This document shows positions 19,853 to 32,427 of a stretch of DNA of 43,016 nt, piece by piece; position 1 is the first letter of the stretch; each line of letters starts with the position of its first letter. The DNA is from Candidatus Methanophagales archaeon (lineage in GTDB: Archaea > Halobacteriota > Syntropharchaeia > Alkanophagales > Methanospirareceae). The notes beneath the pieces were generated by a model. It was not told where the DNA came from, did no database searches, and worked only from the letters and a program-made list of their open reading frames with translations. The stretch is from the NCBI GenBank assembly GCA_014859735.1, contig JACUTR010000002.1:1-43016 (forward strand), in the 5' to 3' direction. Position numbers and translations under genes: made by a program.

Positions 19853-19885
19853 ATTTTTTGATAAACCTTTTTTCTAAAAAGTTTT
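19853..19885. promoter_or_regulatory. 31-nt AT-rich palindromic motif (copy 2, on the minus strand) filling the cbiG-C/cbiHC spacer
   Basis: The minus strand reads AAAACTTTTTAGAAAAAAGGTTTATCAAAAAATATG. It starts inside the cbiG-C stop codon and ends at the cbiHC ATG. Confidence 0.5.
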
Positions 19886-20649: not shown

Positions 20650-21380
20650 GGCTCATCACCACTATAAAGCCTTGAAAAGCCTGATTTCTCAAGCACATCA
20701 CCCACAATTATCACTGATTGGCTCTTTATACCCGCAGTCCTCACCTTATCGGTTATGTCACCCAGAGTGCCTCTTATTATCTTCTCCTCCCCCCATGACG
20801 CTTTATGAACCACAGCTACGGGTGTCGTGAGGGGATAGCCGACGCGCAGTTCTGAAACCACATCGTCAATGAGATGAACGCCAAGAAAAATGACCATCGT
20901 CGCTCCATGCTTTGAAAGCTCTTTTATACCTTCTCCCGCGGGCTTTCCCGTCTTTCCAAACGGTTTCGTGATTATCAGCGTTTGAGCTATACCTGGTGAG
21001 GTGAATTCTCGTTTTAGGGATGCAGAAGCAGCGGAAAAAGAAGATACACCAGGTACAAGCTCGAATTCGATATTCTTTGAAGCGAGAAACTCCATCTGTT
21101 CTTGAATAGCGGAATAGAAGCTCAAGTCGCCGGAATGAAGCCTCACCACCTTCTTGCCCTCAGTTACAAATCGCTCGAAAATGGCGGAGATTTCTTCTCT
21201 GCTCTTACCATAACTGTCGATCAGTATCGCGTCGTCCCTCGCGTATTTTAAGATATCATTATGGATGAGCGAGCCCGCATATAGTATCACATCGGCACTC
21301 TCTATCTCTCGTTTTCCTCTGAGCGTGAGCATTTCCGGATCGCCCGGCCCCGCGCCAACAAAGACGACGTTCATTTTCAT
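20646..21380 (-). CDS. cbiF: Cobalt-precorrin-4 C11-methyltransferase
   Basis: 'VVFVGAGPGDPEMLT', 'VVRLHSGDLSFYSA' and 'VPGVSSF' are present. The start was set at ATG 21380, because the ORF-track extension to 21449 is a translation of the repeat element. Confidence 0.9.
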   Translation of the reverse strand: MKMNVVFVGAGPGDPEMLTLRGKREIESADVILYAGSLIHNDILKYARDDAILIDSYGKSREEISAIFERFVTEGKKVVRLHSGDLSFYSAIQEQMEFLASKNIEFELVPGVSSFSAASASLKREFTSPGIAQTLIITKPFGKTGKPAGEGIKELSKHGATMVIFLGVHLIDDVVSELRVGYPLTTPVAVVHKASWGEEKIIRGTLGDITDKVRTAGIKSQSVIIVGDVLEKSGFSRLYSGDEP

Positions 21381-21398
21381 AACCACAAGATTACGCAT

Positions 21399-21440
21399 AA
21401 GCCCTTTCAGGGCTTGCGGGGACATGGGGCAGAGCCCCAT
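21399..21440. repeat. GC-rich double-hairpin repeat, copy 2 (AAGCCCTttcAGGGCTT-gcgggga-CATGGGGCagaGCCCCAT)
   Basis: Read directly. Both stems differ from copy 1 by paired (compensatory) changes. Confidence 0.85.
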
Positions 21441-21445
21441 AATTT

Positions 21446-21832
21446 TCACAATATTCTTCTTTTCACCTCCACGCTCTTCTTACCAAAATTTAATAATAAA
21501 CCAATACGCATTTTTGTCGCTTTTAGATAGTTTAATAACTGCGCTTCTTCAATTTCCGTTAAGCCTGCTGTTGCTTTTATCTCTACTATGACTTTATTCT
21601 CGACTATCAAGTCAGGTTTATATTTTCTGGGAATTAACAAGTCTTTGTAACAAATATCGAGTTCTTTTTGCCTCTCAAAAGAAATCTCTCTCAAATTTAG
21701 CTCATAACATAAAGCTTCTTCATAAACATATTCGAGGAAACCAGAGCCTAATTCACGATGGACTTCCATCGCCGCACCTATAATCCCCTGAGTTAAGTCC
21801 TTATAAAGCCACTTTTCATTCGCATTCCCCAT
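21446..21832 (-). CDS. GxxExxY-family protein (PD-(D/E)XK nuclease fold), 128 aa from its own ATG
   Basis: 'GFLEYVY' is the GxxExxY motif and 'PDLIVENKVIVEIKA' is the D..ExK core. The ATG at 21832 is preceded by GAAGGGGGAA. The same frame is also continuous with cbiL. Confidence 0.75.
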   Translation of the reverse strand: MGNANEKWLYKDLTQGIIGAAMEVHRELGSGFLEYVYEEALCYELNLREISFERQKELDICYKDLLIPRKYKPDLIVENKVIVEIKATAGLTEIEEAQLLNYLKATKMRIGLLLNFGKKSVEVKRRIL

Positions 21833-22579
21833 TTCCCCCTTCTGTGTTAATCTTGTGGAATCTCGTGGTTCTGTACCAATATCATCCTTCTTTACGATAA
21901 GAGTGGAGAGGTAATGAGTTGGTTCTTTTAATTCAGTAAGGTTACCCACGACCAGTTTTTGATCCTCGAATCCAACCTTAACACCTAAAATAGCTTTCTT
22001 ATTGCCCAGCATACTTTTAATCGCGTCGGTATTTTTTGGCTTGAGAAAGATCACGGAATCGGAATGTTGTATCACTCGAAGGGCAGTATGGTTTTCTATT
22101 ACATCAGGAATTATAGAAACAATTTCATTCCCTTCTGCGATAGGGACTTTAGCCAGAGCGGAACATGCGGAAAAAGAGGTTACACCAGGTATGATCTCCA
22201 CCTCTTCCACTTCCTCTCCAAAGAAGTCCAGAAATTTGTAGAAGGTGGAGTACAAACTTGGGTCTCCAAGGGTTAGAAATGCGATGGTTTCACACCCTCC
22301 CCTCCTCTCTAATACTTCTCTTTTAGCTTTTTCCCAATAAGATTTCAACTCTTCCTCATTTCTTGTCATCGGAAATAACGGCTCGATTATAAGCGGTTTA
22401 TTCTCTCTTCTCTCCTCTAAAAATTTCTTTATTGTAAGCAATGCTAAGCTGCTTTTACCCTCTCCCGACCTCGGAGCAACTATCATATCCACTTCCTTAA
22501 GTACCTTATACGCTTTCACGGTGAGCAGTTCCGGGTCTCCGGGTCCCACACCTATTCCATACAGCTTGTTGATCCTCAT
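21446..22579 (-). CDS. cbiL: Cobalt-precorrin-2 C20-methyltransferase CbiL (about aa 1-236, 21872-22579) reading through without a stop into the GxxExxY module
   Basis: 'LYGIGVGPGDPELLT', 'LTLGDPSLYST' and 'IPGVTSFSA' are present. There is no in-frame stop between the CbiL domain and 21446. Confidence 0.85.
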   Translation of the reverse strand: MRINKLYGIGVGPGDPELLTVKAYKVLKEVDMIVAPRSGEGKSSLALLTIKKFLEERRENKPLIIEPLFPMTRNEEELKSYWEKAKREVLERRGGCETIAFLTLGDPSLYSTFYKFLDFFGEEVEEVEIIPGVTSFSACSALAKVPIAEGNEIVSIIPDVIENHTALRVIQHSDSVIFLKPKNTDAIKSMLGNKKAILGVKVGFEDQKLVVGNLTELKEPTHYLSTLIVKKDDIGTEPRDSTRLTQKGEMGNANEKWLYKDLTQGIIGAAMEVHRELGSGFLEYVYEEALCYELNLREISFERQKELDICYKDLLIPRKYKPDLIVENKVIVEIKATAGLTEIEEAQLLNYLKATKMRIGLLLNFGKKSVEVKRRIL

Positions 22580-23163
22580 TTTTCTCCGTATATCAGGAAT
22601 ACTGGATAAGAGGGAGAAAGAGCAGTTTTGCCGCCTAAATCTTTACCTTTGTTCAGGCAGATATTGAGAATCTCTGGATAGATACCTCTATCCTTTACTA
22701 TGGTTAGAGCCTCTACTACGGTTTCAAGTCTGACCGCAGCGATAATAATTCTTCCTCCATTTTTCAAGTGCTTGAATGCATTGTCGAACGATTTTTCAAG
22801 GTTATCCGTCCCTCCAAAGAAGATGAGATCAAAACGGTTGTTCAAATCAACATGTTCCATCTCACCAGAGATAAGCTCGATTTTATCATTCAACCCAAAT
22901 CGTTCTATATTCTTTCTCGCAATTTCAAAATTCTCGTCATCCTTCTCCACTGCGGTGACATCGCACCCGAACCTCGCAAATTCAATCGAGACACTTCCTG
23001 AACCGGTACCCACGTCTAAAATCCTTTCGTTCCCTTTTATCCTCGCTTTGGAAACGATAATCGCACGGATTTCTTCTCTCGTTAAGCCTGCTTTCGACCG
23101 CAAGAAGAGGTCGTCGGATATTCCCGGACTTTTATAATCCCATTCTTCTTTCTCTATTGCCAT
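22576..23163 (-). CDS. cbiT: Cobalt-precorrin-6B C15-methyltransferase (decarboxylating)
   Basis: The SAM motif 'ILDVGTGSGSVSIE' is present. Size is 195 aa and the gene sits in the cbi operon. Confidence 0.85.
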   Translation of the reverse strand: MAIEKEEWDYKSPGISDDLFLRSKAGLTREEIRAIIVSKARIKGNERILDVGTGSGSVSIEFARFGCDVTAVEKDDENFEIARKNIERFGLNDKIELISGEMEHVDLNNRFDLIFFGGTDNLEKSFDNAFKHLKNGGRIIIAAVRLETVVEALTIVKDRGIYPEILNICLNKGKDLGGKTALSPSYPVFLIYGEK

Positions 23164-24038
23164 AGATTACCCTTCATTACTTTTAACAGCTCCTCAACGC
23201 TCCGCGGTGGCACTCCGGGGTTTTCACACGCAGCCATCTCGATGCCTTTGTATATCCTCAACACCCTCGGCATGGCAAGCCTGCTCGACTTGATAACCGC
23301 CTCATCACCTAATACATCGTATGGCTTACCCGATTTTACGATTTCCCCCTCCCTCATAACCATCACCTTATCTGCCCACTCATAGACAAGTTCGACATCA
23401 TGGGTCGCTACTAAAACAACCATGTTATCATTCTGTTCGCAGAGGCTATCAATAGTGTTTAGCAAATCTTCTGAACTTTCAGGGTCTAATCCGGAAATAG
23501 GCTCGTCTAAAACTAATATATCGGGTTCCATAGCCAGGACTCCTGCGATAGCCACCTTTTTCTTCTCTCCTTCGCTTAATTCATGGGCCTTCCTATCCCT
23601 CAAGTCCCCAATATTGATCTCGTTTAGTGCTCTCTTCACCCTCTTTTTCACTTCCCCCTCACTCAACCCAAGATTCACCGGACCCAGCGCTACATCCTGG
23701 AACACGATCGGAGCCACAATCTGATCATTAGGATTCTGAAATACGATTCCTACACGCTTTCTCACTTCGGTAAGGGCTTTTTTAGTATAGCTGAGCAAAT
23801 TCCCTAAAATGGTAATATATCCCTTATCAGGTATCAATAGTCCGTTCAAGTGCAGTAATAATGTTGTTTTTCCAGACCCGTTACACCCCACGAGTGCGGT
23901 CTTATCTCCTCTTTTCAGCTCCATATCCACCCCCTTAAGCACCCATTTCTTCTTATCATACGAAAACCATAAGTCCTGAACCTCCACCATTTTCTCAGCA
24001 TCCCTTTTTATATCCTCCCCGTCCTTATATCCGCTCAT
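23154..24038 (-). CDS. cbiO: ECF-type cobalt/nickel transporter ATPase
   Basis: Walker A 'GCNGSGKTT', signature 'LSEGEKKKVAIAG' and Walker B 'ILVLDEP' are present. Confidence 0.9.
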   Translation of the reverse strand: MSGYKDGEDIKRDAEKMVEVQDLWFSYDKKKWVLKGVDMELKRGDKTALVGCNGSGKTTLLLHLNGLLIPDKGYITILGNLLSYTKKALTEVRKRVGIVFQNPNDQIVAPIVFQDVALGPVNLGLSEGEVKKRVKRALNEINIGDLRDRKAHELSEGEKKKVAIAGVLAMEPDILVLDEPISGLDPESSEDLLNTIDSLCEQNDNMVVLVATHDVELVYEWADKVMVMREGEIVKSGKPYDVLGDEAVIKSSRLAMPRVLRIYKGIEMAACENPGVPPRSVEELLKVMKGNLWQ

Positions 24039-24039
24039 A

Positions 24040-24831
24040 TCACACTCCCCCTTCTACTGCCAGAACGAGTAAACACGCATCAAATAGAATCATGAGAATG
24101 AGAGAAGGTGACATAACGTGGACTTTGCTCTCGCTTTCGTCTTCTCTTCCAAACTTCAAAGAAGGCATTTTACCCGCATAACATCGGGCTTCTAAGGCTC
24201 TCTCCATATTTCGTGCTTTCTCAAGTGACCTTACGAGCATAGAGGAAAGAAGAAGGCTCAAAGATTTTATCCTCTTCCCCCTCAAATAACCCAAACGGGC
24301 ATCTTGTGCTATCTTCGTGCTTTCCATCTCATCTATCAGCACAAAAATCAATTTGTATACCATAAAAGAAAGTTCCCCTACTATCTCAGGCATCCTGAAC
24401 TTCCTCATCGTATCCAATATGTCCGCTATTGGCGTGGTCATAATCAGGAAAAAGAGGCATGAAATTCCGGCCATTGACCTCATCATCAGTAGAGCACCTA
24501 ATTCCAAACCTTCTCTCATCATGGTTAAATGCATCCCTATTACGGAAAAGGTAAGCACCGGCTCTGAGCCTCGTAAAAAAGCTAAGACGAATAGAGAAGG
24601 AAGTAAAAAGGTTAAGGGTATCATCAATAGTTTCAAATAGTGTTTGATTCCTACACCACTCCAAATAGTTATGGAGGACATGGTGAAGAGGATGAGAAGC
24701 AATAGAAAGGGCGATTGGGTATAAACAGCAATAAAAAGAGTACAGAGAGAGAAAAATAGCTTCTCCCCGGTTCTTATCTTTACAAGCTTATTTGAAACGG
24801 TGTAGCTCTCCAAGGTGTGATCTAAATGCAT
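24040..24831 (-). CDS. cbiQ: ECF transporter transmembrane (T) component
   Basis: It is polytopic and carries 'ARxxRG'-type coupling helices ('QDARLGYLRGKR'). It lies between cbiN and cbiO. Confidence 0.8.
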   Translation of the reverse strand: MHLDHTLESYTVSNKLVKIRTGEKLFFSLCTLFIAVYTQSPFLLLLILFTMSSITIWSGVGIKHYLKLLMIPLTFLLPSLFVLAFLRGSEPVLTFSVIGMHLTMMREGLELGALLMMRSMAGISCLFFLIMTTPIADILDTMRKFRMPEIVGELSFMVYKLIFVLIDEMESTKIAQDARLGYLRGKRIKSLSLLLSSMLVRSLEKARNMERALEARCYAGKMPSLKFGREDESESKVHVMSPSLILMILFDACLLVLAVEGGV

Positions 24832-24832
24832 C

Positions 24833-25120
24833 TTATTTCTCGCTCTCTTTTCTGCCCTTCAATATGCCGAAATAGTAGCCTATTATGAGCGAGCCGATAG
24901 CTGCTTGAAGAGCAAAGAGGAGAGATTCAATCTCCCCACTCGGCGGCTCCCAGATGGGATTCACCCAGGGCTCGTAGTTTAAACTCTGCTCTATCAGCTC
25001 CATTCCCTGACCATCGGTGCCACCCCACTCGGCTTTTGGAATTGCGGTCGTCAGAGCAAGCAAAGAGAAGAAAGAAATCACAAGCAAGACTGCAAGGATC
25101 GTTGTGGCCTCAAGCTTCAC
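24833..25120 (-). CDS. cbiN: Cobalt transport protein CbiN
   Basis: The 95-aa protein has two TM helices flanking an extracytoplasmic loop. Its start overlaps the end of cbiM. Confidence 0.75.
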   Translation of the reverse strand: MKLEATTILAVLLVISFFSLLALTTAIPKAEWGGTDGQGMELIEQSLNYEPWVNPIWEPPSGEIESLLFALQAAIGSLIIGYYFGILKGRKESEK

Positions 25121-25784
25121 TTACGCTCACCCCCTTCGGTTGCCACATCTCCACCGCCACCCCGTGTTCCTGCAAAAGTTTCAACGCCAATGCCACCGTT
25201 ATGCCCTCGATAATGGCAAGCGGGACCTGTGTGACTGCGAATATGCCAAAGAACGCTTCGAAAGAGAGTAAGATACCTCCTTTTGTCGCCGGAAATGCCG
25301 CCGCGAGCTGCCCGGCAGTAACCACGTAAGTCATCAGGTCAGCAAAGAAAGCCGCTACAAAGCCTGAAGTCAGGAGTCCTGCTTTCATTCTTCTCACTGC
25401 TCTATACGCCAGCCAGCCCACCGCCGGTCCTACTATCCCCATTGAGACTGTATTTGCACCCAGCGTTGTTATCCCTCCGTGTGCTAAGAGCAGTGCCTGG
25501 AAGAGCAACACGATGATGGATAAGAAGGCGGTAATGCTCGGCCCAAACAATACCACTCCCAAGCCCGTTCCCGTTGGGTGAGAGCAACTCCCGGTGACCG
25601 AAGGCAGCTTCAGGGCCGAGAGGACGAAAATGAAAGCCGCAGTGACAGCCAGTAAGGGCATTACGCCCAGCTCCCTTTCCCGCAACTTCTGTGCTCTATA
25701 AATTCCGTACCCCACTATCGGAAGAGCAAGTGCATACCACACCGCAGACCACTCAAGCGGCAAGAAGCCCTCTGCTATATGCAT
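25110..25784 (-). CDS. cbiM: Cobalt/nickel ECF substrate-capture component CbiM
   Basis: The N-terminus 'MHIAEGFLP' carries the metal-liganding Met-His. The start was set at ATG 25784. Confidence 0.9.
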   Translation of the reverse strand: MHIAEGFLPLEWSAVWYALALPIVGYGIYRAQKLRERELGVMPLLAVTAAFIFVLSALKLPSVTGSCSHPTGTGLGVVLFGPSITAFLSIIVLLFQALLLAHGGITTLGANTVSMGIVGPAVGWLAYRAVRRMKAGLLTSGFVAAFFADLMTYVVTAGQLAAAFPATKGGILLSFEAFFGIFAVTQVPLAIIEGITVALALKLLQEHGVAVEMWQPKGVSVSEA

Positions 25785-25820
25785 GCTTGTCACCTCTGTA
25801 CCTTCTATGAGAGCATGCCT

Positions 25821-25828
25821 ATTTAAAT
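25821..25828 (-). promoter_or_regulatory. TATA-like box (TTTAAATA context) upstream of cbiM
   Basis: ATTTAAAT lies 37-44 nt upstream of the cbiM ATG in the only sizeable gap between cobN-like and cbiM. Confidence 0.3.
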
Positions 25829-25918
25829 TTTCACATCTGGGTAACAAATGTTATCCTAATAGTATGCTTGCTGTTCTGGAGGTTGTTCAGGAACCGAAAG
25901 TATGCCCTGCACGTAATC

Positions 25919-28900
25919 TTATCTCTTTCTACCGCCGAACAGATAGCCTGCAGAGATGAATGCGAGAATAACTATAACGGCTATAATTCCCACCAGCGGA
26001 GTTGCAGAGATAGGAAAACCTTCTTCTCCCGCTACTTCTGCCATCACTTTACCTACCTTTACTACCTCCTCCTCACCCACACCGCCCTTTCCCGCCGCGG
26101 ACAACACTTCTTCATTATACTTCATCACTGTTCCAATGCTTATCACTCCCGGGGCTGAAAGTAGGCCGGCGATATATTCACGTAACCGAGGGTTTCCGCA
26201 CGTATGATGGCAGCAGGTCACACCATGCTCCGCAACAGATTCGGCATATTCCTTAGCGAGCTCCTCAAGAACCTCTTCCGAAGGATGCCAGTATCCTTTT
26301 CTCGACACCTCGAGCATTCTCGCGGTAATTGATTGGTAAGCATAAGGATTTGCTTCAAAAAATTCCTTCAGCCCAAGATCATATTTGTCCTTAACATAGA
26401 CCTCATACGTTTCGTTCCACATCCTTTCCGTGATAAGTTCGGGCACCATTACATCCCATCCCCACTGGTGCTCGACGAATTTTGCCATCTCGCGCGCTCC
26501 TGCATACCCCTCCTCCTTCATCCCGGTGATCCACTTCGGACTGAAATATCTCGCTCGTTGCTCCCTTGTGAGATAGTTGCTCAGTGCGTCGATTTTTTCT
26601 CCTCCTGGATTCCTCTGATTGCTTATATAAAGGTCGGGTGTTTCTCCTTTTGTATTTCTTACTGCTAAAGCTAACCCGCCCAGGTATTGGAAATAATCAT
26701 CGTTGTCCATCACGCCATACAGGTTCGAGCTTTGACTATGTACTGCAACATCCACTCCTTTCAGATTCTCCTCAAATACTCCTGCATGCTGATTGCCCCA
26801 GGTAGCCTCGCCATATACGTGGCTCAATCTTTTAATGTACAGATTGGCAAGTTTTGTCTCATCTTCCCATGTGCTACTGGCAGCCACCGCGTCATCTAAG
26901 TTCGTTCCATAAGCTCCGGGCGGTTCTGAGAATATCCTTGCCTTTGAGAGATTACTTGCCGCAGATTCGTTATATCCTTCTCTTAGAAGGCTCGAATAGA
27001 TCGAAAAAGAGTTCTCGCGTGCATAGTTCCTGAATCCTTCTTCAGTTGCGTTAGAGGCAAGCGTAACCGCCTTGTCAATGAGTCTTACCTTATCCGGGAA
27101 GGTATCTCTATAAAGTCCTGACGTGGTAACTAAAACGTCTATCCTTGGTCTTCCAAGCTCCTCAGAACTGATGAGTTCGACGTCCACTACCCTGCCTCTG
27201 CTGTCCCACACCGGCTTTGCGCCCAACAAGTATAAAATCTCTGACTCGGTGATTCCCTGATGCCTCATTGTCTCGACTGACCAGAGCACGAAAGCGACTT
27301 TATTTGGATACGCCTCTTTCTTCTCCCGATGTTCGGCTATCAACTGGTCTGCAAGTTCTTTTCCGACTTCCCACGCTTCTTTTGTGGGCACGATTCGGGA
27401 ATCAAAGGAATAGAAATTGTTCCCGGTAGGAATAGCCTCCGGACTTCTAATCGGGTCATTTCCCATCTTTGGCGGGACATACCTCCCTTCCAGGCCCGCT
27501 AATATTCGGGGAATCTCAATATCGCAACCAGCGATAGCCGCGCTATAGGTTAGCCCGAGTTCAAGATCAGTGGTTATGTTCTCTGACCGTGCGCCTAAGA
27601 GTTTATACTGGGCTTCCTCAATGGGAGTATTGTTACTAATAACCTCTTCCAGGAGTTCATCGAGCATTGTTCTATTACCTTCAAGAAGGGCAACATGATC
27701 AATATCATAAACTGCCTTGACATGGTCTTCATATTCCTCTCCCAGCATTGACTTTACCATCTTAATCAGTCCTTCTCCTTCAGGAGGCTGACTCAACGTG
27801 TGCAAGCCGTACGGTATGTATTCAGAAGAGAGTTCGTGAAGATACCGGTGCACTTCTCCCCTTATCACCAACTCCTCAAACTCTTCTAACTTCGCGTCTC
27901 TTAGCTCCTCTACTGAGAAGTTAACGTCTTCATCAATTCCCATCCCGGCGCAGAGGTCCAGTATTGATTGCCGGTATTCTTCCTTAAGACGAGGTTCTGC
28001 TGTATCCATGTAAAGATGCATCTTGTGATGAAGCTCAGAGAGGTTTCCGTATAATCCCGAGCTTTCAATCGGAGGTGTCAGATGATCTACTATAACCGCA
28101 TTTCCTCTTCTCTTTGCCTGTGTCCCTTCACCAACGTTATCCATCTGATAGGGATAAATGACCGGCATGTCCTGTATCAGAAGAGCAGGCCAGCAGCTTT
28201 CTATTGATAATCCACTCTCCTTACCCGGCAGCCACTCCTGTGTTCCATGCTTTCCGAAGTGTATAATTGCATCTGCCTTGTACTCCCGGTTAAGCCAGAA
28301 GTAGAAGGCTATGTAGTGATGGTGAGGAACTAATTCTTTATCATGGTAGAGGGCTGTCTCATTCTGCAGTATCCCCCTTGTTGGTTGAGGGGCAAGTATC
28401 ACCTTCCCCAATTTTATTACCGGGAATACAAAATACTTCCCTGTCGTGTTTTCATACACCATCAAATCCCCGGGAGGATCGCCCCATTTCTCTATTACTT
28501 CCTCTCTACTCTCGTTCGGAAGCCCATTAAACCACTCCGAGTATTCACTCACCGGGAATAAGACCACCGATTCGTGCTCTGCCATACGTTTGAGTTCACC
28601 GGGAGCCCAACTGCCTATATTCCTCCCTTGACGAATCATCAAATCAATGAGCTCAGTTTCGTTAGGAACTTCTCCTTCCACCCCGTAACCTTCTTCTTTC
28701 ATCGCACCGAGAAGCATTTCCAAACTCGGTGCTATGTTCAGATAACATGCGCCAAAATTGTCTTTCCCGCCTCCATGATTGTAGTATATAACTGCTATTC
28801 TCTTCCCAGAATTACCTTTGTTCCTGAGTTCAATCCAGGAGATGGTTCTGTTTACTACCCATTTTATCTGGTCTTCTATGGGCTCGTAATATGAGTAGCC

Positions 28901-29887
28901 GGTTACCGGGTCAATTGAGTTCCCTCCTATCACTACATGCTCTATTGTCCCATCTAACTCCGGCTGAGCTATTTGCCATGGTATTCCTATCCATGGAATC
29001 CCCTGCTCACTTCTCCTCCATTCTGTTTCATTCTCGGAAGAAAGTTGTATCAAATTCATAACCGGGACATCAATCCTCTCCAAATCCTTTAACCCTTCTT
29101 CAGGAGCGTAATAACTCAGTCTAAAAGCTTTCAGGGAAAGGATGATGTCCGGTTTTGCTTCTTCAAGGAGGAAAGGACTCGCTTCTTGATACGCCGCAAC
29201 CACAGTTATTCCCCTCGCTTCAAGGGACCGGATAAGTTCGTCAACAACTTTTAAGTCACCGGTTGCATAATGCGACTTGTAAAACAGTATTCCCGCGGTA
29301 GGCATGCCGGGATCAGGCTCATACCATTCTAAATACGCATCTAAACGTTCAAAAAGCTCCTTTGCTTCCGGATGGTATATCGCATCGTCTGGCAAAACCA
29401 GTGGTGGTTTCACTTCAAGCTCCATACCGCACAAATTCGCAGCCAGATAAACCAAAAGCCTTTTCGCGTTCTCAGTTCCGCCATTTCCCCAGTATTCCTC
29501 AATCCAGGGGTGCGCACTCACATTCACATTTCCCAAATCAGTCTCTCCGGAGTGTATGGCAATTACTTTCGCCCCCGCGTCCTTTCCTTCTCGTAGCCTG
29601 CTCTCCATTTCCATTTGAGACTCCGATCCCAGCATCTCCAGGAAAATAATGTCGTGTCCCCTTAAACTCGCTGGTATTCTCGAGATTTCTTCGGCGGTGT
29701 AAACAGTAACCTTAAAACCTAACTCCTCAGCAGCATCTGTGAGCAGACCTTTATAGCCCGCATAACCCATAATGAAACAGATGTCGCATTTATTATCCTT
29801 CCCCTGGGTTGGTAAGGCGCTTTGAAAGACAGAGAGGCAGAGAAACAAGCACACGATGAAAACTGTTAACAATCTGAATATCTTCAC
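25919..29887 (-). CDS. CobN/Mg-chelatase large-subunit homologue with an N-terminal signal peptide and a C-terminal TM anchor
   Basis: 'IIHFGKHGTQEWLPGK' is the hallmark CobN/ChlH motif. The N-terminus 'MKIFRLLTVFIVCLFLCLSVFQSA' is signal-like. The C-terminus 'LVGIIAVIVILAFISAGYLFGGRKR' is a TM helix followed by a basic tail. The GTG start overlaps the upstream stop (GTGA). Confidence 0.85.
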   Translation of the reverse strand: MKIFRLLTVFIVCLFLCLSVFQSALPTQGKDNKCDICFIMGYAGYKGLLTDAAEELGFKVTVYTAEEISRIPASLRGHDIIFLEMLGSESQMEMESRLREGKDAGAKVIAIHSGETDLGNVNVSAHPWIEEYWGNGGTENAKRLLVYLAANLCGMELEVKPPLVLPDDAIYHPEAKELFERLDAYLEWYEPDPGMPTAGILFYKSHYATGDLKVVDELIRSLEARGITVVAAYQEASPFLLEEAKPDIILSLKAFRLSYYAPEEGLKDLERIDVPVMNLIQLSSENETEWRRSEQGIPWIGIPWQIAQPELDGTIEHVVIGGNSIDPVTGYSYYEPIEDQIKWVVNRTISWIELRNKGNSGKRIAVIYYNHGGGKDNFGACYLNIAPSLEMLLGAMKEEGYGVEGEVPNETELIDLMIRQGRNIGSWAPGELKRMAEHESVVLFPVSEYSEWFNGLPNESREEVIEKWGDPPGDLMVYENTTGKYFVFPVIKLGKVILAPQPTRGILQNETALYHDKELVPHHHYIAFYFWLNREYKADAIIHFGKHGTQEWLPGKESGLSIESCWPALLIQDMPVIYPYQMDNVGEGTQAKRRGNAVIVDHLTPPIESSGLYGNLSELHHKMHLYMDTAEPRLKEEYRQSILDLCAGMGIDEDVNFSVEELRDAKLEEFEELVIRGEVHRYLHELSSEYIPYGLHTLSQPPEGEGLIKMVKSMLGEEYEDHVKAVYDIDHVALLEGNRTMLDELLEEVISNNTPIEEAQYKLLGARSENITTDLELGLTYSAAIAGCDIEIPRILAGLEGRYVPPKMGNDPIRSPEAIPTGNNFYSFDSRIVPTKEAWEVGKELADQLIAEHREKKEAYPNKVAFVLWSVETMRHQGITESEILYLLGAKPVWDSRGRVVDVELISSEELGRPRIDVLVTTSGLYRDTFPDKVRLIDKAVTLASNATEEGFRNYARENSFSIYSSLLREGYNESAASNLSKARIFSEPPGAYGTNLDDAVAASSTWEDETKLANLYIKRLSHVYGEATWGNQHAGVFEENLKGVDVAVHSQSSNLYGVMDNDDYFQYLGGLALAVRNTKGETPDLYISNQRNPGGEKIDALSNYLTREQRARYFSPKWITGMKEEGYAGAREMAKFVEHQWGWDVMVPELITERMWNETYEVYVKDKYDLGLKEFFEANPYAYQSITARMLEVSRKGYWHPSEEVLEELAKEYAESVAEHGVTCCHHTCGNPRLREYIAGLLSAPGVISIGTVMKYNEEVLSAAGKGGVGEEEVVKVGKVMAEVAGEEGFPISATPLVGIIAVIVILAFISAGYLFGGRKR

Positions 29888-30246
29888 TTCTTCTCTTCCC
29901 TCTCCAATTCCACGGGAACATAAATTATCTCGCCGGTTTCCAATTTATACGCGGTTCCGAGTATCTTCCCTCTCCCTCCCGCAGTTTTGTTGGTCATTTC
30001 CAGGTGCTTTATCTCCTTCCCGTCTTTGATGATGATCTCCATATCCTCTTCGCCTGGATTCTTCACGATGGTCACCTTAGACTGCTCAGAAAGAAGCTCT
30101 GGTAGATGTGAGGAGAAAGCAAAGGCAATGAGCAATATTACTGCAAAAGCCATTGCTACATCGAATAGATTAGCTAATCCACGCATAGGGTCTTCCTCTT
30201 CTCCGATAATATCGCTATACCTCCTTCTTCGTGCCATTATCATCAC
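29884..30246 (-). CDS. ExbD/TolR-like single-pass protein (possibly DUF2149-type)
   Basis: A basic N-terminus is followed by the TM segment 'LANLFDVAMAFAVILLIAF', with an intramembrane Asp as in ExbD/TolR. A beta-rich domain of about 60 aa follows. Confidence 0.6.
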   Translation of the reverse strand: MMIMARRRRYSDIIGEEEDPMRGLANLFDVAMAFAVILLIAFAFSSHLPELLSEQSKVTIVKNPGEEDMEIIIKDGKEIKHLEMTNKTAGGRGKILGTAYKLETGEIIYVPVELEREEKK

Positions 30247-30859
30247 CTCCTAAAACTTCCACCACGTATTCCATATCACTCAAATCTTGAGAATACCATC
30301 TCCTCTTGATCGTCGCCATAACGTAGTTTAATCCTCCAATAAGCAAACCCAGGACGGTGGTGCTGAATACAACGATCAAATTGGTAGCCATTTCACTTAT
30401 GTTCCCCGACGCCAAATTCATTAACGCCGGGCCCATGGGTATCAACGTCCCCATGAGCCCCAGCATCGGTCCTACCCTGATTAATATCCGTTCCTTCTCA
30501 GTTCTCTCCCATACAGTTATCTCATACTCTTGCAGGAGCTTTTCAGCCTCCGTTTTGAAATTCCACTTTCCAATAAACCCGGAGAGGTCGTCAATAAACC
30601 TGGAAAGTAGATAACTTGAACCACTACTTCTAACGGTTTCGGACGCTTTTTCAATTTCTCCTCCCACTAAAAACTTTTTTGCCTCCCCACATCCTATTCT
30701 AAGCTTATCTAAATCGCGATTCCTGGAGATGTATTCAGAGAAGAACGCACCTATTTCTACAAATGAGTAGAGTAAAAGCACAAGCAGCCCGATTATCACC
30801 GGATACAATAGCGCTAAGGTTACTGTGTAAAGAGGAGTTAACAGTACCTCGGAGACCAT
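30215..30859 (-). CDS. MotA/TolQ/ExbB-family proton channel protein
   Basis: 'GPMLGLMGTLIPMGPAL' and 'NLIVVFSTTVLGLLIGGL' match the conserved ExbB/TolQ TM2-TM3 region. A perfect SD (AAAGGAGGTGATC) lies upstream of the ATG. Confidence 0.8.
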   Translation of the reverse strand: MVSEVLLTPLYTVTLALLYPVIIGLLVLLLYSFVEIGAFFSEYISRNRDLDKLRIGCGEAKKFLVGGEIEKASETVRSSGSSYLLSRFIDDLSGFIGKWNFKTEAEKLLQEYEITVWERTEKERILIRVGPMLGLMGTLIPMGPALMNLASGNISEMATNLIVVFSTTVLGLLIGGLNYVMATIKRRWYSQDLSDMEYVVEVLGGDDNGTKKEV

Positions 30860-31569
30860 CGGATCACCTCCTTTAACCTGTGTCTTAAGAAACCAAAGAA
30901 AAAGAAGAGAATAGCGATGAGCATGAAAAGAACCAGATTATCTGACGGCATAGAGATGCTTAATGGTGCTGCTTGCATATCACCCGCCTTAATATACGCG
31001 GGTATGAGTAAAACGGAGAGGAGATAAAAACTCCCGATAACTATCATTACGTTGCCAAGGTTAACGGGGCTTTTCTTAAACTTCCGGAAAAGCAAAGAAG
31101 TTACGGGGATTGTTATAAAAAAGATAATACCAACAGAAGCTCCTATTCCCAAACGGCTCAAGTCTGTATAAGCTGCTAAAGTAGTGCAGGAGATAAAAAT
31201 GGCAGCCAGGCAGATAGGACAGGGGATAGAAAGTAGCAGAAAAGAGCGCCTTGAGATATCCCGCCTTTTTGAATTCCATTCCTTCACCGTGTGGATCCCT
31301 GCCGCCAGCAGAGCTATGGAAAGGAGTGTAAAAAGGATAACATAAGCAGTGGTAACATCCCTGCTAAAAATCAACTGGTTAACCCTGAGTGGAACTAACA
31401 CAAGTAATTGATTAATTCCAATCGAGAGGAGAAGGTATACTCCTCCGATGTATAAAACTTCCTCCTTTTTTAAACTTGCTAATCCACACCCGATCCCTGC
31501 TTTTGCCGCGAGAAGAAAGATGCTCAAAAAAACAGCAATAAAAAGTCCTGGTATCGGATTCAAAATCAC
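30838..31569 (-). CDS. Polytopic membrane protein (about 7 TM) with an intramembrane CPxC motif, possibly the DUF2162 'predicted transporter' type
   Basis: About seven hydrophobic segments are visible. 'LLSIPCPICLAAIFISC' lies inside a TM segment. The GTG start overlaps the upstream stop (GTGA). Confidence 0.5.
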   Translation of the reverse strand: MILNPIPGLFIAVFLSIFLLAAKAGIGCGLASLKKEEVLYIGGVYLLLSIGINQLLVLVPLRVNQLIFSRDVTTAYVILFTLLSIALLAAGIHTVKEWNSKRRDISRRSFLLLSIPCPICLAAIFISCTTLAAYTDLSRLGIGASVGIIFFITIPVTSLLFRKFKKSPVNLGNVMIVIGSFYLLSVLLIPAYIKAGDMQAAPLSISMPSDNLVLFMLIAILFFFFGFLRHRLKEVIRWSPRYC

Positions 31570-32240
31570 TTACCTCCTTTGCCCCTCGCACTCAATCTAT
31601 AGCCAGAAATATCAAGGAGCCAGTTTCCGTCTTTAAATTTTTTATCCGATTGTAGTATCTCCACTCTTCTCTGAAATATCGGACCATCGAGTACAAAAGT
31701 ATGATATTCGCCATGTTCGCCGCCGGGATGAATTCCTTCTGGCAGGTCTTTGATGAAGTGCGCATCCAATTCCCTACCTAACCACTCTTCATCGAAGAAA
31801 TCGGCTTTAACTTTTATAACCAGCGCTTTGAATCCCGCATTGACAAATTCTTTCAAGACCTCCTCGGGGTCATTTCCCCATAAGGGTTCTATTGACTCCA
31901 CATCTACTTCCGAACAAACTCTATCCACCCAGTCTTTGTGTTCTTGCAGGTCAATATCGCCAAATACACCTCCCTTTACTTCTTTCTCTTTTAAAGCTGC
32001 CACTGCTTCCTTAAATTTCGCTTCGTATCCTTCCCACGAGCTCTTAACCTGGATTATGGGTATTCCTATTGCCTCAGCCTGTAAGGCGATCAAATCAGAG
32101 CTGAGCCCGTGCGCCCTTGATCTCGTTCCGTCTTCGGATATAAAATTAAGGAGATAAGAGACGTCAAAGCCCTCTGACAATGCTTTATAGCAGGCAAGGC
32201 AACTCTCCTTGCCACCACTCCAGGAAGAAAAAACCTTCAT
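31566..32240 (-). CDS. PP-loop ATP pyrophosphatase of the MJ0570 / diphthine-ammonia ligase (Dph6-like) family
   Basis: The PP-loop 'SWSGGKESCLA' and 'EHGEYHTFVLDGPIF' are typical of the Dph6 N-terminal domain. Confidence 0.65.
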   Translation of the reverse strand: MKVFSSWSGGKESCLACYKALSEGFDVSYLLNFISEDGTRSRAHGLSSDLIALQAEAIGIPIIQVKSSWEGYEAKFKEAVAALKEKEVKGGVFGDIDLQEHKDWVDRVCSEVDVESIEPLWGNDPEEVLKEFVNAGFKALVIKVKADFFDEEWLGRELDAHFIKDLPEGIHPGGEHGEYHTFVLDGPIFQRRVEILQSDKKFKDGNWLLDISGYRLSARGKGGK

Positions 32241-32427
32241 CCTCGCCTTTCACCTTATCTTTGAAGTGCCGTTTTGTCTCAAGTAGTTTTCCTTTTTGAT
32301 AATATGTATAACCCAAATGGGTAACACTGTGGGGAGTCCGAGCACTACGCGTCTTGAGAATCCATCAACAAACAGATGAGGATTCACCCGGGCGGGTTTG
32401 AAGTGAGTCCTTTGAATAAATAGGCCT

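Follow-up and report, generated by a model that had tools for sequence, protein, structure and literature searches.

A CobN-like protein predicted to lie outside the cell is encoded with an ExbB-like/DUF2149 pair beside cobalt and cobamide genes in a probable ANME-1 archaeon

The class-I chelatases CobNST and ChlH-ChlI-ChlD are cytoplasmic enzymes powered by AAA+ ATPases, and forward chelation by these enzymes needs an input of energy. HmuS of the Bacteroidota is a periplasmic, ATP-independent heme de-chelatase, membrane-anchored at both ends, with the N-terminal anchor helix being a prediction; soluble HmuS, devoid of anchors and motor, still turns heme into PPIX in vitro (PMC12583661). In published models, HmuU and HmuV either energize HmuR or import heme with HmuT (PMC12583661, PMC13227078). 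The equivalents in B. fragilis are BtuS1 and BtuS2 (PMC6460266), and "BtuS"-type B12-regulated CobN-like systems are credited to Rodionov et al. 2003, as relayed in PMC6460266. Methanogen homologues have also been labelled "BtuS metalloporphyrin salvage" (PMC10846266, PMC6460266). Plasmid pSZ77/pGLOV01 of Geobacter (Trichlorobacter) lovleyi SZ carries a further cluster, Glov_3667-3675, in the order tandem cobalamin riboswitch, TonB-dependent receptor, DUF2162, ExbB-like, DUF2149, CobN and a separate exbB-exbD-tonB set; its host has neither CobS nor CobT (PMC3403914). The hmuS/hmuU/hmuV genes and this B12-riboswitch operon are relatives of the cassette described here.

The window, the whole 43,016-nt stretch of DNA analyzed, contains five minus-strand ORFs in the 5' to 3' order PP-loop ATPase, DUF2162, MotA/ExbB-like, DUF2149 and CobN-family (25919-32240; Table 1). 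Successive genes overlap by 4 nt (GTGA), 22 nt, 32 nt and 4 nt (GTGA). A first-pass annotation had read the coordinates and overlaps in the same way, and the domain set that it named, cobN/DUF2149/ExbB/DUF2162, was matched in profile searches. The DUF2149 gene likely starts at the ATG at codon 4 (30237), after GGAGGTGA, which gives a product of 117 aa and cuts the overlap to 23 nt. A TATA-like element, TTATACATATTAT, is a candidate promoter of the cassette. As also noted at the outset, cbiMNQO lies directly downstream and is followed by an anaerobic cbi operon. Here cbiM scores 276 with TIGR00123 (cut-off 184) and cbiN scores 110 with NF002780 (cut-off 84), while cbiQ and cbiO match CbiQ and ABC_tran, respectively. 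The probable start of cbiM is the ATG at 25784, and with a TATA-like TTTAAATA ahead of it at 25820-25827 the gene seems to have its own promoter, a point against the reading proposed below. The anaerobic cobamide genes, among them a cbiL carrying a GxxExxY fusion, are context and stand outside the proposed machine. There is no riboswitch in the window and no feoB or heme gene in its operon, where the cbiMNQO and cbi genes are found instead.

Table 1. Coordinates of the cassette genes, selected motifs and neighboring genes in the window
Feature	Position	Strand	Basis
PP-loop ATPase	31566-32240	-	Diphthami_syn_2, PF01902, E 5e-61
DUF2162	30838-31569	-	PF09930, E 1e-49, 168.9 bits
MotA_ExbB	30215-30859	-	PF01618, 33.2 bits (cut-off 22.9)
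DUF2149	29884-30246	-	PF09919, E 2e-31
CobN-Mg_chel, 1322 aa	25919-29887	-	PF02514, 1192 bits
TATA-like element TTATACATATTAT	32299..32311	-	about 60 nt upstream of the PP-loop ATG; from sequence
CobN-like N-terminal hydrophobic segment, aa 3-21, after MKIFR	29825..29881	-	Kyte-Doolittle 2.67
CobN-like C-terminal TM helix, aa 1293-1315, with LFGGRKR tail (predicted cytoplasmic)	25922..26011	-	Kyte-Doolittle 2.73
HFGKHG, aa 543-548, superfamily-wide active-site His	28244..28261	-	alignment
GVMDNDDYFQYLGG, aa 1058-1071, chelatase-type acidic motif	26675..26716	-	alignment
GVTCCHHTCGN Cys/His cluster, aa 1222-1232	26192..26224	-	family alignment
VGKVMAEV juxtamembrane linker motif (G-x-V/E-M)	26033..26056	-	family alignment
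DUF2162 intramembrane motif S-I-P-C-P-I-C, aa 114-120, TM4	31210..31230	-	CPxC in 66/68 homologues
NLFDVAM in DUF2149 TM helix, Asp29	30151..30171	-	Asp invariant in 41/41 aligned sequences
cbiM, cbiN, cbiQ, cbiO (ECF-type cobalt importer)	23154..25847	-	NCBIfam and Pfam-type matches
cbiT, cbiL, cbiF, cbiG_N, cbiG_C, cbiH-cbiC, cbiD	17370..23163	-	anaerobic cobamide pathway

At first sight the last gene of the cassette is a cobaltochelatase gene, and its product does have the Pfam CobN domain. It reaches none of the NCBIfam equivalog cut-offs for CobN and BchH, and its top PDB match is HmuS (9d26, 567 bits), followed by CobN (488) and ChlH (483). Only 29-30% identical to reference CobN sequences, it falls outside their clade and outside the HmuS clade; its own clade is all-archaeal, with the CobN of G. 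lovleyi as the nearest relative among bacteria. Topology was judged from hydropathy and charge (positive-inside rule), with HmuS as a precedent. The N-terminal hydrophobic segment, which has a comparable counterpart in most linked CobN homologues, may be either a signal peptide or an anchor; of 40 complete linked homologues, 39 end in a TM helix with a basic tail. The body of the protein is thus predicted to lie outside the cell, tethered to the membrane, which agrees with the first-pass annotation on both termini and on the location of the body.

The acidic motif of the protein is of the chelatase type rather than the HmuS type. The His of HFGKHG matches HmuS His-538 (PMC12583661), and GVMDNDDYFQYLGG, in which the chelatase motif is kept as DNDDYFQYLGG, aligns with HmuS LSLDHVYEFMGG and with DSDDYYQFEGG and DSDDYFQYHGG of the CobN structures. 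HmuS His-1209 and Glu-1212 are replaced by Asp1064 and Gln1067, and the heme ligands His-254 and Met-79 by Ala and Leu; the Met-rich insertion of HmuS is absent. On these residues the protein is not HmuS proper. Because it has a chelatase-type acidic motif and lacks the heme ligands, it cannot be assumed to de-chelate as HmuS does or to share the HmuS substrate. The catalytic motifs HxGxHG and DNDD persist in most clade members, this one included. Some, in Methanoculleus, have lost both and retain the motor, which suggests that some of these proteins, at least, have a binding or structural role. A Cys/His cluster, GVTCCHHTCGN, is all but invariant across about 45 archaeal linked homologues of any active-site subtype, with CCDHTC in G. 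lovleyi and PSCSGFVCDN in Bacteroidota as counterparts; it is a hallmark of the archaeal clade and a candidate metal site. Close to the membrane, all 39 archaeal homologues have a G-x-V/E-M motif 17-26 residues ahead of the TM core, in a linker whose length varies from 67 to 140 residues. The motif recurs in HmuS (KGVVMKKE, KGTVLKAE), in G. lovleyi (GFEMKE) and in loci L062 and L080, and we regard it as a candidate docking element for the motor.

The ExbB-like protein has three TM helices and a 126-aa cytoplasmic loop by hydropathy. At 36% identity over the full length (E 2e-40) it is by sequence an orthologue of Bacteroidota HmuU, and the GLMGT..P and TT..GL signatures are at least 90% conserved across 76 ExbB-like homologues. 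Its partner, which the first-pass annotation had called ExbD-like, is DUF2149, by sequence an orthologue of HmuV (48% identity, E 3e-32). It consists of a short basic N-terminus, one TM helix and a small all-beta outer domain (VKNPG ... IYVP; AF2 model pLDDT 67), and it matches neither ExbD nor TolR by sequence or predicted fold. Asp29 pairs Asp-to-Asp with the ExbD and TolR TM helices, a pairing devoid of statistical support. On these grounds DUF2149 is no ExbD homologue; it is not Pfam ExbD, and the TM Asp is the sole likeness.

DUF2162 is predicted to have seven TM helices, with charges that fit an N-out, C-in arrangement; the helix count and the intramembrane CPIC, placed here in TM4, are as first reported for this gene. 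The intramembrane CPxC is found in 66 of 68 homologues, with Cys28 99% and Cys128 94% conserved. The protein has no homology to HmuT, whose operon slot in Bacteroidota it fills. The PP-loop ATP pyrophosphatase (SGGKES at aa 8-13; top PDB matches 3rjz and 2d13) scores 155.9 with TIGR03679, under the cut-off of 197.3, and is probably a housekeeping Dph6 (diphthine-ammonia ligase). It had been counted as part of the set, but its gene adjoins the cassette only in ANME-1 loci L009, L010, L011 and L015, and in L015 it is 87% identical to that of the window while the cassette genes are merely 37-58% identical. It is a lineage-specific neighbor outside the conserved unit.

Indeed, the conserved unit is apparent across lineages. 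Counting only loci whose flanks allow each neighbor to be scored, the ExbB-like gene adjoins DUF2149 in 71/71, DUF2162 is present in 61/67 where visible, and CobN is present in 30/37 with full flanks. No TonB-dependent receptor, TonB, ExbD or ChlI-like ORF was seen in any archaeal locus surveyed, and no AAA+ chelatase subunit (CobS, CobT, ChlI, ChlD) among window ORFs of at least 150 aa, which bears out the earlier remarks that TonB and AAA+ partners are missing. The cobalt context recurs as well. The cassette occurs with cbiMNQO in six loci; cbiM, cbiQ and cbiO adjoin it in L005, L015, L017, L021 and L044. A cbi operon or CbiA lies directly downstream in L009, L008, L035 and L005, and in L009, the closest relative, anaerobic cbi genes come directly after the CobN homologue. 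Elsewhere, CorA is downstream in Methanoculleus, and in Methanosarcina the cassette is preceded by an ArsR-type regulator. Methanolobus also has the motor pair beside an S-layer protein, with CobN missing, a point against the reading proposed below. The first-pass annotation had called the linkage possibly conserved but unexplained: strong conservation is borne out, and precedent exists in hmuS/hmuU/hmuV, the G. lovleyi operon and the BtuS label. Its observations are confirmed and its interpretation is partly supported.

We propose, with about even confidence, that the cassette is an outer-membrane-independent salvage machine of the BtuS/HmuS type that mobilizes cobalt, its motor serving the CobN-like protein. 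A class-I chelatase-fold protein would be held outside the cytoplasmic membrane by its C-terminal, and possibly also its N-terminal, helix. The ExbB-like protein and DUF2149 would form a dedicated stator-like ion channel in which the invariant Asp of DUF2149 binds the proton, and the Cys-rich 7-TM DUF2162 would be a third component. In the probable ANME-1 host, the unit would be wired into cobalt import by cbiMNQO and anaerobic cobamide synthesis. Most likely it would mobilize cobalt that is tightly bound outside the cell. By analogy with what HmuS does to heme, cobalt tetrapyrroles or corrinoids are the leading candidate substrates, and the metal, once freed, would go to CbiMN or through DUF2162. 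The motor would turn PMF into the mechanical work that AAA+ partners give cytoplasmic CobN/ChlH, with force transmitted via the juxtamembrane G-x-V-M motif and the C-terminal helix. PMF in place of ATP fits the data, and the proposal is strengthened by the conserved juxtamembrane motif and by the separate exbB-exbD-tonB of G. lovleyi, where the DUF2149 motor is therefore more than the energizer of the receptor. That a 5:2-type motor forms and couples to the CobN-like protein we infer, as we do the direction of its reaction and the identity of metal and ligand. To our knowledge there is no biochemical precedent for removing cobalt from a corrin ring, which is chemically hard, and this counts against the proposal. 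Further points against are the turnover by soluble HmuS without a motor, the other published HmuUV roles and a DUF2149 without the ExbD fold.

The rival that we take most seriously, while thinking it unlikely, is a PMF-driven importer built from DUF2162, DUF2149 and the ExbB-like protein. It would take an intact corrinoid or metallotetrapyrrole, or the bare metal ion, across the cytoplasmic membrane, and the CobN-like protein would be its tethered high-affinity binding or loading protein and carry out no (de)chelation. HmuTUV has been proposed as the inner-membrane heme transport complex of P. gingivalis (PMC13227078), and Wagner et al. suggested transport of a corrinoid or organometallic complex (PMC3403914). 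Other points in its favor are the Pfam label of DUF2162 as a predicted transporter, its near-invariant CPxC, the absence of btuFCD genes from the G. lovleyi operon as shown and the motors retained beside degenerate active sites. The catalytic motifs kept by most of the clade argue the other way, HmuS is demonstrably catalytic, and cbiMNQO is already adjacent for metal. Moreover, we know of no MotA/ExbB-family complex that imports a solute. A role in harvesting heme iron, as in Bacteroidota, is improbable in our judgment; the protein would then de-chelate heme as HmuS does, either to provide Fe(II) or to process heme needed by the numerous cytochromes found in ANME and Methanosarcinales. The HmuS match and the HmuU and HmuV partners are in keeping with that role, ANME-1 paralogue L021 bears an HmuS-like LGIDHTFEFFGG, and M. 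barkeri homologues shift in abundance with the Fe/S source, which was interpreted as taking Fe from heme (PMC10846266). Against it stand the substituted ligands and acidic-motif residues, the missing Met-rich insertion, the position outside the HmuS clade and an operon with cobalt rather than iron or heme genes; cobalamin, not iron, controls the nearest bacterial homologue.

More doubtful still is a forward extracytoplasmic chelatase that would load a metal-free tetrapyrrole, such as a secreted metallophore, with Co or Ni for import of the resulting complex. Its active-site motifs are those of biosynthetic CobN, and the energy requirement of class-I chelation would give the motor a purpose. 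An exporter, a corrinoid importer and a metal-free-ligand gene are all unseen in the loci, however; the host has the anaerobic, early cobalt-insertion pathway, and the adjacent transporter takes in ionic cobalt. We consider it scarcely tenable that this is the CobN cobaltochelatase of cobamide synthesis, a cytoplasmic protein encoded next to unrelated genes, as the Pfam domain and the site beside cbi genes might suggest: that reading is already contradicted by both termini, the missed cut-offs, the clade and neighbors conserved in 61-71 loci. CobS, CobT, ChlI and ChlD are also missing from the window, whose anaerobic pathway does not use CobN.

Of the described systems, the G. lovleyi cluster is the one that has DUF2162, MotA/ExbB, DUF2149 and CobN in identical order, with cobalamin genes around. 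Its CobN shares the N-terminal signal, H-x-G-T-H-G, LDNDDFFQYLGG, CC-x-HTC, a G-x-E-M linker motif and the C-terminal TM helix with basic tail. The host is a diderm bacterium, unlike that of the window, and the tandem riboswitch and upstream TonB-dependent receptor, as well as its own exbB-exbD-tonB and a second receptor downstream, are found in no archaeal locus; its DUF2162 is without the Cys28 equivalent and the PP-loop gene is missing. The hmuYRSTUV operon likewise pairs a CobN-superfamily protein on terminal helix anchors, its body extracytoplasmic and bearing a juxtamembrane G-x-V-M/L motif, with HmuU and HmuV, the orthologues of the window's pair, and with a polytopic membrane protein of about 240 aa encoded immediately ahead of the ExbB-like gene; the AAA+ partner is missing here too. 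In contrast, the window is without the HmuY hemophore and HmuR receptor, has the unrelated DUF2162 in place of HmuT, and places CobN last rather than first. Its CobN-like protein has the CCHHTC cluster but neither the insertion nor the Met-79/His-254 and His-1209/Glu-1212 residues of HmuS and belongs to a different clade, and the context is cobalt/cobamide, not iron/heme. With CobNST and ChlH-ChlI-ChlD it shares the large subunit of the PF02514 fold family, the HFGxHG and D-x-DD-Y-x-Q-x-x-GG motifs and, conceptually, a tetrapyrrole-binding subunit worked by a separate energy-transducing partner; it is predicted to be extracytoplasmic, however, with no AAA+ partner nearby and an ion-channel motor linked instead. 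With ExbB-ExbD-TonB, TolQ-TolR and MotA-MotB, finally, the cassette has in common a PF01618 A subunit of 3-TM ExbB topology and, immediately downstream in an overlapping frame, a single-pass partner with an essential-looking TM Asp. It differs in the B subunit, a DUF2149 of small all-beta outer domain with no detectable ExbD, TolR or MotB homology, and does without TonB, TolA and any peptidoglycan or outer-membrane partner. This DUF2149-type motor occurs in archaea and, in G. lovleyi, alongside a canonical Ton set.

All five minus-strand ORFs that the first-pass annotation had described at 25919-32240 were recovered at those positions, and the overlapping arrangement claimed for them holds as well: successive genes overlap by 4, 22, 32 and 4 nt, with GTGA at both 4-nt junctions. 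The DUF2149 gene more probably starts at an ATG three codons inside the called ORF; this codon has the Shine-Dalgarno sequence GGAGGTGA ahead of it and yields a 117-aa protein, as in the public collection. TATA-like boxes lie ahead of the PP-loop gene and ahead of cbiM, and cbiMNQO may therefore have its own promoter.

Cassette genes and other features of the window, with the matches on which they were assigned
Coordinates	Strand	Gene or feature	Match
31566-32240	-	PP-loop gene, Diphthami_syn_2 (PF01902)	Pfam E 5e-61
30838-31569	-	DUF2162 (PF09930)	Pfam E 1e-49; 168.9 bits vs gathering score 34.4
30215-30859	-	ExbB-like gene, MotA_ExbB (PF01618)	33.2 bits vs cut-off 22.9; profile positions 50-125 of 127
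29884-30246	-	DUF2149	Pfam E 2e-31
25919-29887	-	CobN homologue, CobN-Mg_chel (PF02514)	1192 bits
21446-22579	-	cbiL with in-frame C-terminal fusion	TIGR01467 191 vs cut-off 163
19884-20649	-	split cbiG: CbiG_N 20254-20649, CbiG_C 19884-20267	
18434-19852	-	cbiH-cbiC fusion	
920-3471		NifH-like gene and divergent CfbB	NifH-like: PRK13230 437 vs 350, CfbC model 330 < 402; CfbB: 596 vs 560
39614-43010	-	two large ORFs, 846 aa and 328 aa, overlapping at 42024-42154	no Pfam match

Membrane topology was predicted with a hydropathy and charge script. The CobN homologue begins with a signal-like segment, 19 hydrophobic residues after MKIFR, and ends in a predicted helix (aa 1293-1315) plus LFGGRKR; its 1270-residue body is therefore predicted to lie outside the cell, as had been proposed from the sequence alone, and we consider this placement likely. 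Among the complete CobN homologues linked to the cassette elsewhere, 39 of 40 carry a C-terminal hydrophobic helix with a basic tail and most have a signal-like start, so that the tethered extracytoplasmic architecture appears to be a trait of the family. DUF2162 has seven predicted TM helices, with positive-inside charges that fit an N-out, C-in orientation and with the CPIC motif inside TM4. The ExbB-like protein has three (approximately 12-30, 125-147 and 157-175) and a basic loop of 126 aa, and DUF2149 has a single TM helix, which contains Asp29.

The DUF2149 family is large (3169 clusters at 90% identity). A survey with one genome per species returned more than 565 stretches encoding DUF2149, the best 80 of which were taken with 10-kb flanks. 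In these best 80 of more than 565, and wherever the contig permits, the ExbB-like gene is immediately upstream of DUF2149 (71/71 loci) and DUF2162 is upstream of the ExbB-like gene (61/67); a CobN homologue, usually directly downstream, lies within 10 kb in 30 of the 37 loci with full flanks. The linkage suspected in the first-pass annotation is thus conserved. Carriers include ANME-1, ANME-2, ANME-3, Syntrophoarchaeum, Methanosarcina, Methanolobus, Methanococcoides, Methanohalophilus, Methanothrix, Methanoculleus, Methanofollis and Altiarchaeota, and a few bacteria; the same gene order is seen in the precomputed Pfam annotation of contigs from Methanoculleus, M. acetivorans and Syntrophoarchaeum. 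In M. acetivorans the cassette occupies roughly 7.7-14.9 kb of locus L003 (AE010299.1:394871-413266). By sequence, the cassette proteins are closest to those of Methanophagales (ANME-1) MAGs (77-92% identity), which makes an ANME-1 archaeon the probable source of the window. Clustering of recurrent neighbors recovered mostly genus-level synteny.

In many loci, tandem pairs of CobN paralogues follow a single motor set: L021 (10693-20297), L054, L003, L020, L027, L033, L039, L052, L064 and L070. Two ExbB-DUF2149 pairs share one contig in L054. A NosD/beta-helix protein is encoded ahead of the triplet in an Altiarchaeota locus (L071). Three short MAG contigs labelled Desulfuromonadales (L011), Nitrosotalea (L017) and Proteobacteria (L076) carry cassettes 55-92% identical to those of ANME-1 or Methanoculleus and are probably mis-binned archaeal contigs. 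Another ANME-1 genome (L015, 4195-16531, corresponding to window 23154-32240) has orthologous flanks, with the PP-loop gene 87% and cbiMNQO 85-91% identical; for the intervening DUF2162, ExbB-like, DUF2149 and CobN genes, identity to the window drops to 37-58%, and the CobN protein is 1518 aa. It looks as if the cassette had been swapped for a paralogous version at a fixed locus. A second ECF-type set of cbiM, cbiQ and cbiO lies upstream in L015.

One gene did not keep its place in the cassette. The first-pass annotation had counted the PP-loop ATPase as a member, but in the surveyed loci it adjoins the cassette only in ANME-1, and among those loci its identity stays at 79-92% even where that of the cassette genes falls to 37-58%; its absence outside ANME-1 and its much higher conservation rule it out as a core component. 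The protein scores 155.9 against TIGR03679 (Dph6), below the cut-off of 197.3, and in the PDB it most closely matches 3rjz (N-type ATP pyrophosphatase) and 2d13 (PH1257), both of which we take to be archaeal Dph6-type proteins. We regard it as a housekeeping neighbor that came to be co-transcribed.

The best solved-structure match of the window CobN was HmuS (9d26, 567 bits), ahead of CobN (488) and ChlH (483). HmuS belongs to the Bacteroidota operon hmuY-R-S-T-U-V, which encodes a hemophore, a TonB-dependent receptor, the CobN-like HmuS, the hypothetical membrane protein HmuT, the MotA/ExbB protein HmuU and the DUF2149 protein HmuV (PMC10434189, PMC11681262). It is a membrane-bound periplasmic enzyme with predicted anchor helices at both termini, known from cryo-EM, and it takes Fe(II) out of heme without ATP (PMC12583661). 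The likeness extends to the motor pair: in two Bacteroidota contigs, HmuV is 48% identical to the window DUF2149 (E 3e-32) and HmuU aligns along the whole of the ExbB-like protein at 36% identity (E 2e-40). HmuT matches DUF2162 in size and position without detectable homology, and the idea that it is a diverged DUF2162 was rejected (BLASTP returned nothing, hhalign gave a probability of 0.6%, and HmuT has neither a Pfam match nor a CPxC motif). In the archaeal loci, DUF2162 stands in for HmuT, and HmuY and HmuR are missing from all of them; HmuR-like receptors occur only in the bacterial loci L006, L007 and L062.

A tblastn search of plasmids identified a second relative, far ahead of ordinary cobN genes, on pGLOV01 of Trichlorobacter (Geobacter) lovleyi SZ (38% identity over 90% of the query). 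Here DUF2162, MotA/ExbB, DUF2149 and CobN follow in the order of the window, with motifs common to both. A TonB-dependent receptor precedes the four genes; after them come a canonical exbB-exbD-tonB set, distinct from the cassette, and another receptor. The cluster is flanked by the cobalamin genes cobT, bzaF and cobyric acid synthase. Two cobalamin riboswitch aptamers (107 and 65 bits) lie immediately upstream of the first receptor, whereas the window has none. The strain lacks CobS and CobT, and its genome authors stated the role of this CobN to be unknown (PMC3403914).

Several of the features that define HmuS (PMC12583661) are altered in the window protein. The superfamily-wide HFGxHG is present as HFGKHG at aa 543-548, aligned to HFGTHG of HmuS (His-538). 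Where HmuS has LSLDHxxEFMGG (His-1209, Glu-1212), the window CobN has GVMDNDDYFQYLGG, with Asp1064 and Gln1067, which conforms to D-x-DD-Y-x-Q-x-x-GG and is the type found in CobN crystal structures. The heme ligand Met-79 of HmuS corresponds to Leu85, with Met84 beside it, and His-254 (His-Gly-Arg) to Ala254 in SLKAFRLS. The Met-rich insertion of about 120 residues is missing: aa 717-758 span HmuS 700-903, with a maximum of 5 Met per 100 aa. At the same time, the window protein falls below the cut-offs of all NCBIfam CobN equivalogs (the best, NF004645, 1352.7 < 1619; TIGR02257, 672 < 822).

Across the survey the CobN active site varies while the motor genes stay constant. Most archaeal members have the chelatase-like site of the window, and the HmuS-like site is found in Bacteroidota and in L062, a further bacterium whose locus includes an HmuR-like receptor. 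The first tandem paralogue of the ANME-1 locus L021 (2038 aa) carries the HmuS-like motif LGIDHTFEFFGG. Both catalytic motifs are lost from the CobN proteins of Methanoculleus, Methanofollis and one Methanosarcina (L001, L002, L018, L079 and the first paralogue of L020), in which FSIFS replaces HFGxHG and the second motif reads LEHPMVAAYFGG; these degenerate proteins retain the CCHHTC cluster along with the linker motif and the anchor, and the motor genes remain at their loci. That cluster, G(V/A)TCCHHTCGN, shows essentially no variation within the archaeal clade across active-site subtypes, appears as CCDHTC in G. lovleyi and is missing from HmuS-type proteins; it is a candidate metal site. 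A second shared element is G-x-(V/E/I)-(M/L), found in 39/39 archaeal proteins at 17-26 residues before the TM core, within a low-complexity linker of 67-140 residues. It also occurs in Bacteroidota HmuS (KGVVMKKE, KGTVLKAE), in G. lovleyi (GFEMKE), in L062 and in L080. A conserved, strand-like peptide of this kind next to a conserved anchor would be expected of a docking element for a membrane partner, and we infer that it may be one.

A neighbor-joining tree (1272 shared columns, 200 bootstraps) places the archaeal motor-linked CobN proteins in a single clade, split from the bacterial sequences at 100%, with the G. lovleyi protein as the nearest bacterial relative. Bacteroidota HmuS was stitched from four pieces for this tree, the HmuS seed search having given only frame-shifted fragments. 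HmuS-type proteins form a clade of their own, as do the references for biosynthetic CobN (Azospirillum, Spirosoma), each at 100%. Since the window CobN lies outside both, it is neither HmuS proper nor a biosynthetic CobN. The adjoining cbi genes are anaerobic and have no late-insertion context (cobG, cobF, cobW), compared with the cobW-cobN-cobG arrangement of Azospirillum.

The ExbB-like protein has the 3-TM topology and the PF01618 domain of its family, with GLMGT and TT..GL conserved; as a single sequence it matched nothing among PDB sequences. Its partner had been called ExbD-like in the first-pass annotation, and that assignment survives only in outline: DUF2149 has one TM helix near its N terminus in which an Asp is conserved (Asp29, invariant in 41/41 sequences; VKNPG and G-x-AY-x-L-x-x-G-x-x-IYVP are invariant as well), but no sequence or fold match to ExbD or TolR. 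Against Pfam it matched only DUF2149, even at E 10, and not ExbD (PF02472); a DUF2149 profile found neither ExbD nor TolR in the PDB; and hhalign against approximate ExbD/TolR sequences gave a probability below 4%, covering the TM helix alone. The AF2 model combines one long TM helix (aa 20-47) with a small all-beta domain (pLDDT 67 overall, and only 60-76 in the domain), for which Foldseek returned no match at E < 0.4, the sole hint being a weak ComEA-like match at E 0.57. Homology to ExbD or TolR is thus unsupported by the PDB profile, by hhalign or by Foldseek.

In DUF2162, S-x-P-C-P-x-C is kept in 66 of 68 sequences, together with two further conserved Cys. The pattern would suit a soft-metal translocation site as well as a thiol-based redox relay. 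The AF2 model (pLDDT 51) was unusable, and a homologue search gave 22 sequences, mostly close. In Syntrophoarchaeum (L005, 6852-7592) a DsbD_2/CcdA-type thiol-disulfide membrane protein is encoded immediately upstream of DUF2162, and another lies near the canonical cobN of Spirosoma (L090, 2644-3279); these neighbors may bear on a redox role of the CPxC protein.

Directly downstream of the cassette are cbiM, cbiN, cbiQ and cbiO, the first two above NCBIfam equivalog cut-offs, and then the anaerobic cobalt-precorrin genes cbiT, cbiL, cbiF, split cbiG, the cbiH-cbiC fusion and cbiD. The fusion in cbiL is to a GxxExxY/PDDEXK_3 domain (TIGR04256, 150 bits, aa 262-375); its orthologues in L009 and L035 align over about 235-245 aa only and appear to be devoid of this domain. 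The two parts of cbiG overlap by 14 nt, and cbiH-cbiC is the next gene. At its far end the window encodes hemA, hemB, hemC, hemD, hemL, an SUMT methylase, precorrin-2 dehydrogenase, true CfbB of the F430 pathway and the NifH-like gene; precorrin-2 dehydrogenase, hemA and hemB follow the divergent NifH-like and CfbB genes. By this content, genes for F430, siroheme/heme precursors and cobamides lie within one 43-kb window. Across the window and its relatives, cbiMNQO accompanies the cassette in six loci, and cbi genes or CbiA come directly after the CobN gene in L009, L008, L035 and L005. In Methanoculleus the gene after the CobN homologue (L001, 15903-16844) encodes a CorA-type divalent-metal channel, and a divergent ArsR-family HTH regulator lies just upstream of DUF2162 in 14 loci (L003, 6566-7081, and 13 others of Methanosarcina/ANME-3). 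An Rfam scan of the window reached threshold for no family, hence for no cobalamin riboswitch, and scans of seven bacterial or mis-binned loci gave no match. To our knowledge, this riboswitch is generally absent from archaea.

The first-pass annotation proposed that a PMF-driven motor replaces ATP for an extracytoplasmic CobN-like chelatase. Its observation of the gene set is confirmed and its interpretation is supported in part. As it had noted, the window has no AAA+ partner: none of its ORFs of at least 150 aa encodes an AAA+ chelatase subunit (CobS/CobT, ChlI/ChlD), and an approximate ChlI-like probe, indicative only, matched neither the window nor any of 87 loci (L001-L087). It had also seen no TonB-like gene; AAA+, TonB and ExbD probes, likewise approximate and only indicative, matched none of the loci. 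In the mechanism we propose, the ExbB-like/DUF2149 pair would form a stator-type, proton-driven unit with the CobN-like protein, DUF2162 or both as its client. It would supply the CobN-like protein with the mechanical work that AAA+ partners give to cytoplasmic CobN and ChlH, and would serve to mobilize cobalt from tightly bound extracellular forms, cobalt tetrapyrroles being the leading candidate; the metal would then go to CbiMNQO or DUF2162. We see even chances for this combined statement of motor unit, CobN-like client and cobalt mobilization. A role in cobalt or corrinoid acquisition is reasonably probable, and (de)chelation driven by the proton motive force is a tentative suggestion.

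Present papers guess at HmuR energizing or heme import for HmuT/HmuU/HmuV, which a 2026 P. gingivalis paper calls uncharacterized (PMC13227078), and papers based on annotation assign exbB genes of methanogens to siderophore uptake (PMC10350532). G. lovleyi encodes a full Ton set right beside the DUF2149 motor, and this operon is the best single argument that the motor is more than a receptor energizer. Because the pair is kept with CobN-like proteins where the outer membrane is missing, and because of the separate Ton set in G. lovleyi, we argue that the motor works on the CobN-like protein or on its membrane partner and not on an outer membrane receptor. Other clients are also conceivable. 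In two Methanolobus loci (L042, 6404-10318; L053, 6492-10318) the pair instead follows the gene of an S-layer protein (870 aa; PF07752, E 1e-201), and neither DUF2162 nor CobN is nearby, a hint that the motor may have further surface proteins as clients. For the proposed mechanism itself, some clade members have degenerate active sites, and the chelatase-like site of the window would allow either reaction direction. We know of no precedent for the removal of cobalt from corrins. Finally, HmuS in soluble form is active in vitro with no motor present (PMC12583661).

The widest form of the proposal is that, in Archaea and Bacteria, ExbB/DUF2149 drives a tethered chelatase-fold enzyme through the juxtamembrane motif and C-terminal helix, with PMF replacing AAA+, that cobalt (or nickel) is extracted from corrinoids or metalloporphyrins, and that HmuUV energize HmuS, not HmuR. 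We consider it unlikely to hold in full. If it did, ExbB-type ion-driven motors would have a client class unrelated to outer membranes, anaerobic archaea would extract cobalt (or nickel) from environmental corrinoids or metalloporphyrins, which is otherwise unprecedented, and in gut Bacteroidota HmuUV would energize HmuS rather than the HmuR receptor. The role of HmuT/HmuU/HmuV becomes testable in any case. An energized (de)chelatase or capture device at the cell surface would represent a new way of acquiring trace metals, and the question bears on the cobalt and nickel supply of sulfidic-sediment archaea with very high corrinoid and F430 demand. We found no treatment of the archaeal cassette or of archaeal ExbB motors in the literature, and as far as that search reached this would be the first functional context proposed for an archaeal MotA/ExbB-family motor.

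The value of the analysis is comparative: taken together, the archaeal and G. lovleyi loci turn long-unexplained 'CobN' paralogues into a testable hypothesis of trace-metal acquisition. The HmuS structure paper explicitly left open the purpose of the methanogen and ANME paralogues, considered the role of archaeal HmuS homologues unclear and noted that complete hmu operons are absent (PMC12583661). These proteins now gain a defined architecture and a clade, a context linked to cobalt and B12 and, in CCHHTC and G-x-V-M, motifs that are diagnostic. A CobN-like class named 'BtuS', proposed for metalloporphyrin salvage, was described by Rodionov et al. 2003, as cited in PMC6460266, and M. barkeri homologues already labelled BtuS shift in abundance with iron and sulfur source (PMC10846266). 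The window and G. lovleyi CobN proteins fit this class, being distinct from CobN/ChlH, without CobS/CobT and tied to uptake and cobalamin genes. Homology of the cassette to HmuS-HmuU-HmuV and to BtuS-type systems is highly probable. It differs from those salvage systems in occurring in Archaea, within an envelope that has no outer membrane, receptor or Ton system, and in its partner (DUF2162, not HmuT), active-site type, clade-specific CCHHTC cluster and metabolic wiring. The cassette thus belongs with the BtuS/HmuS salvage systems, as a variant of them.
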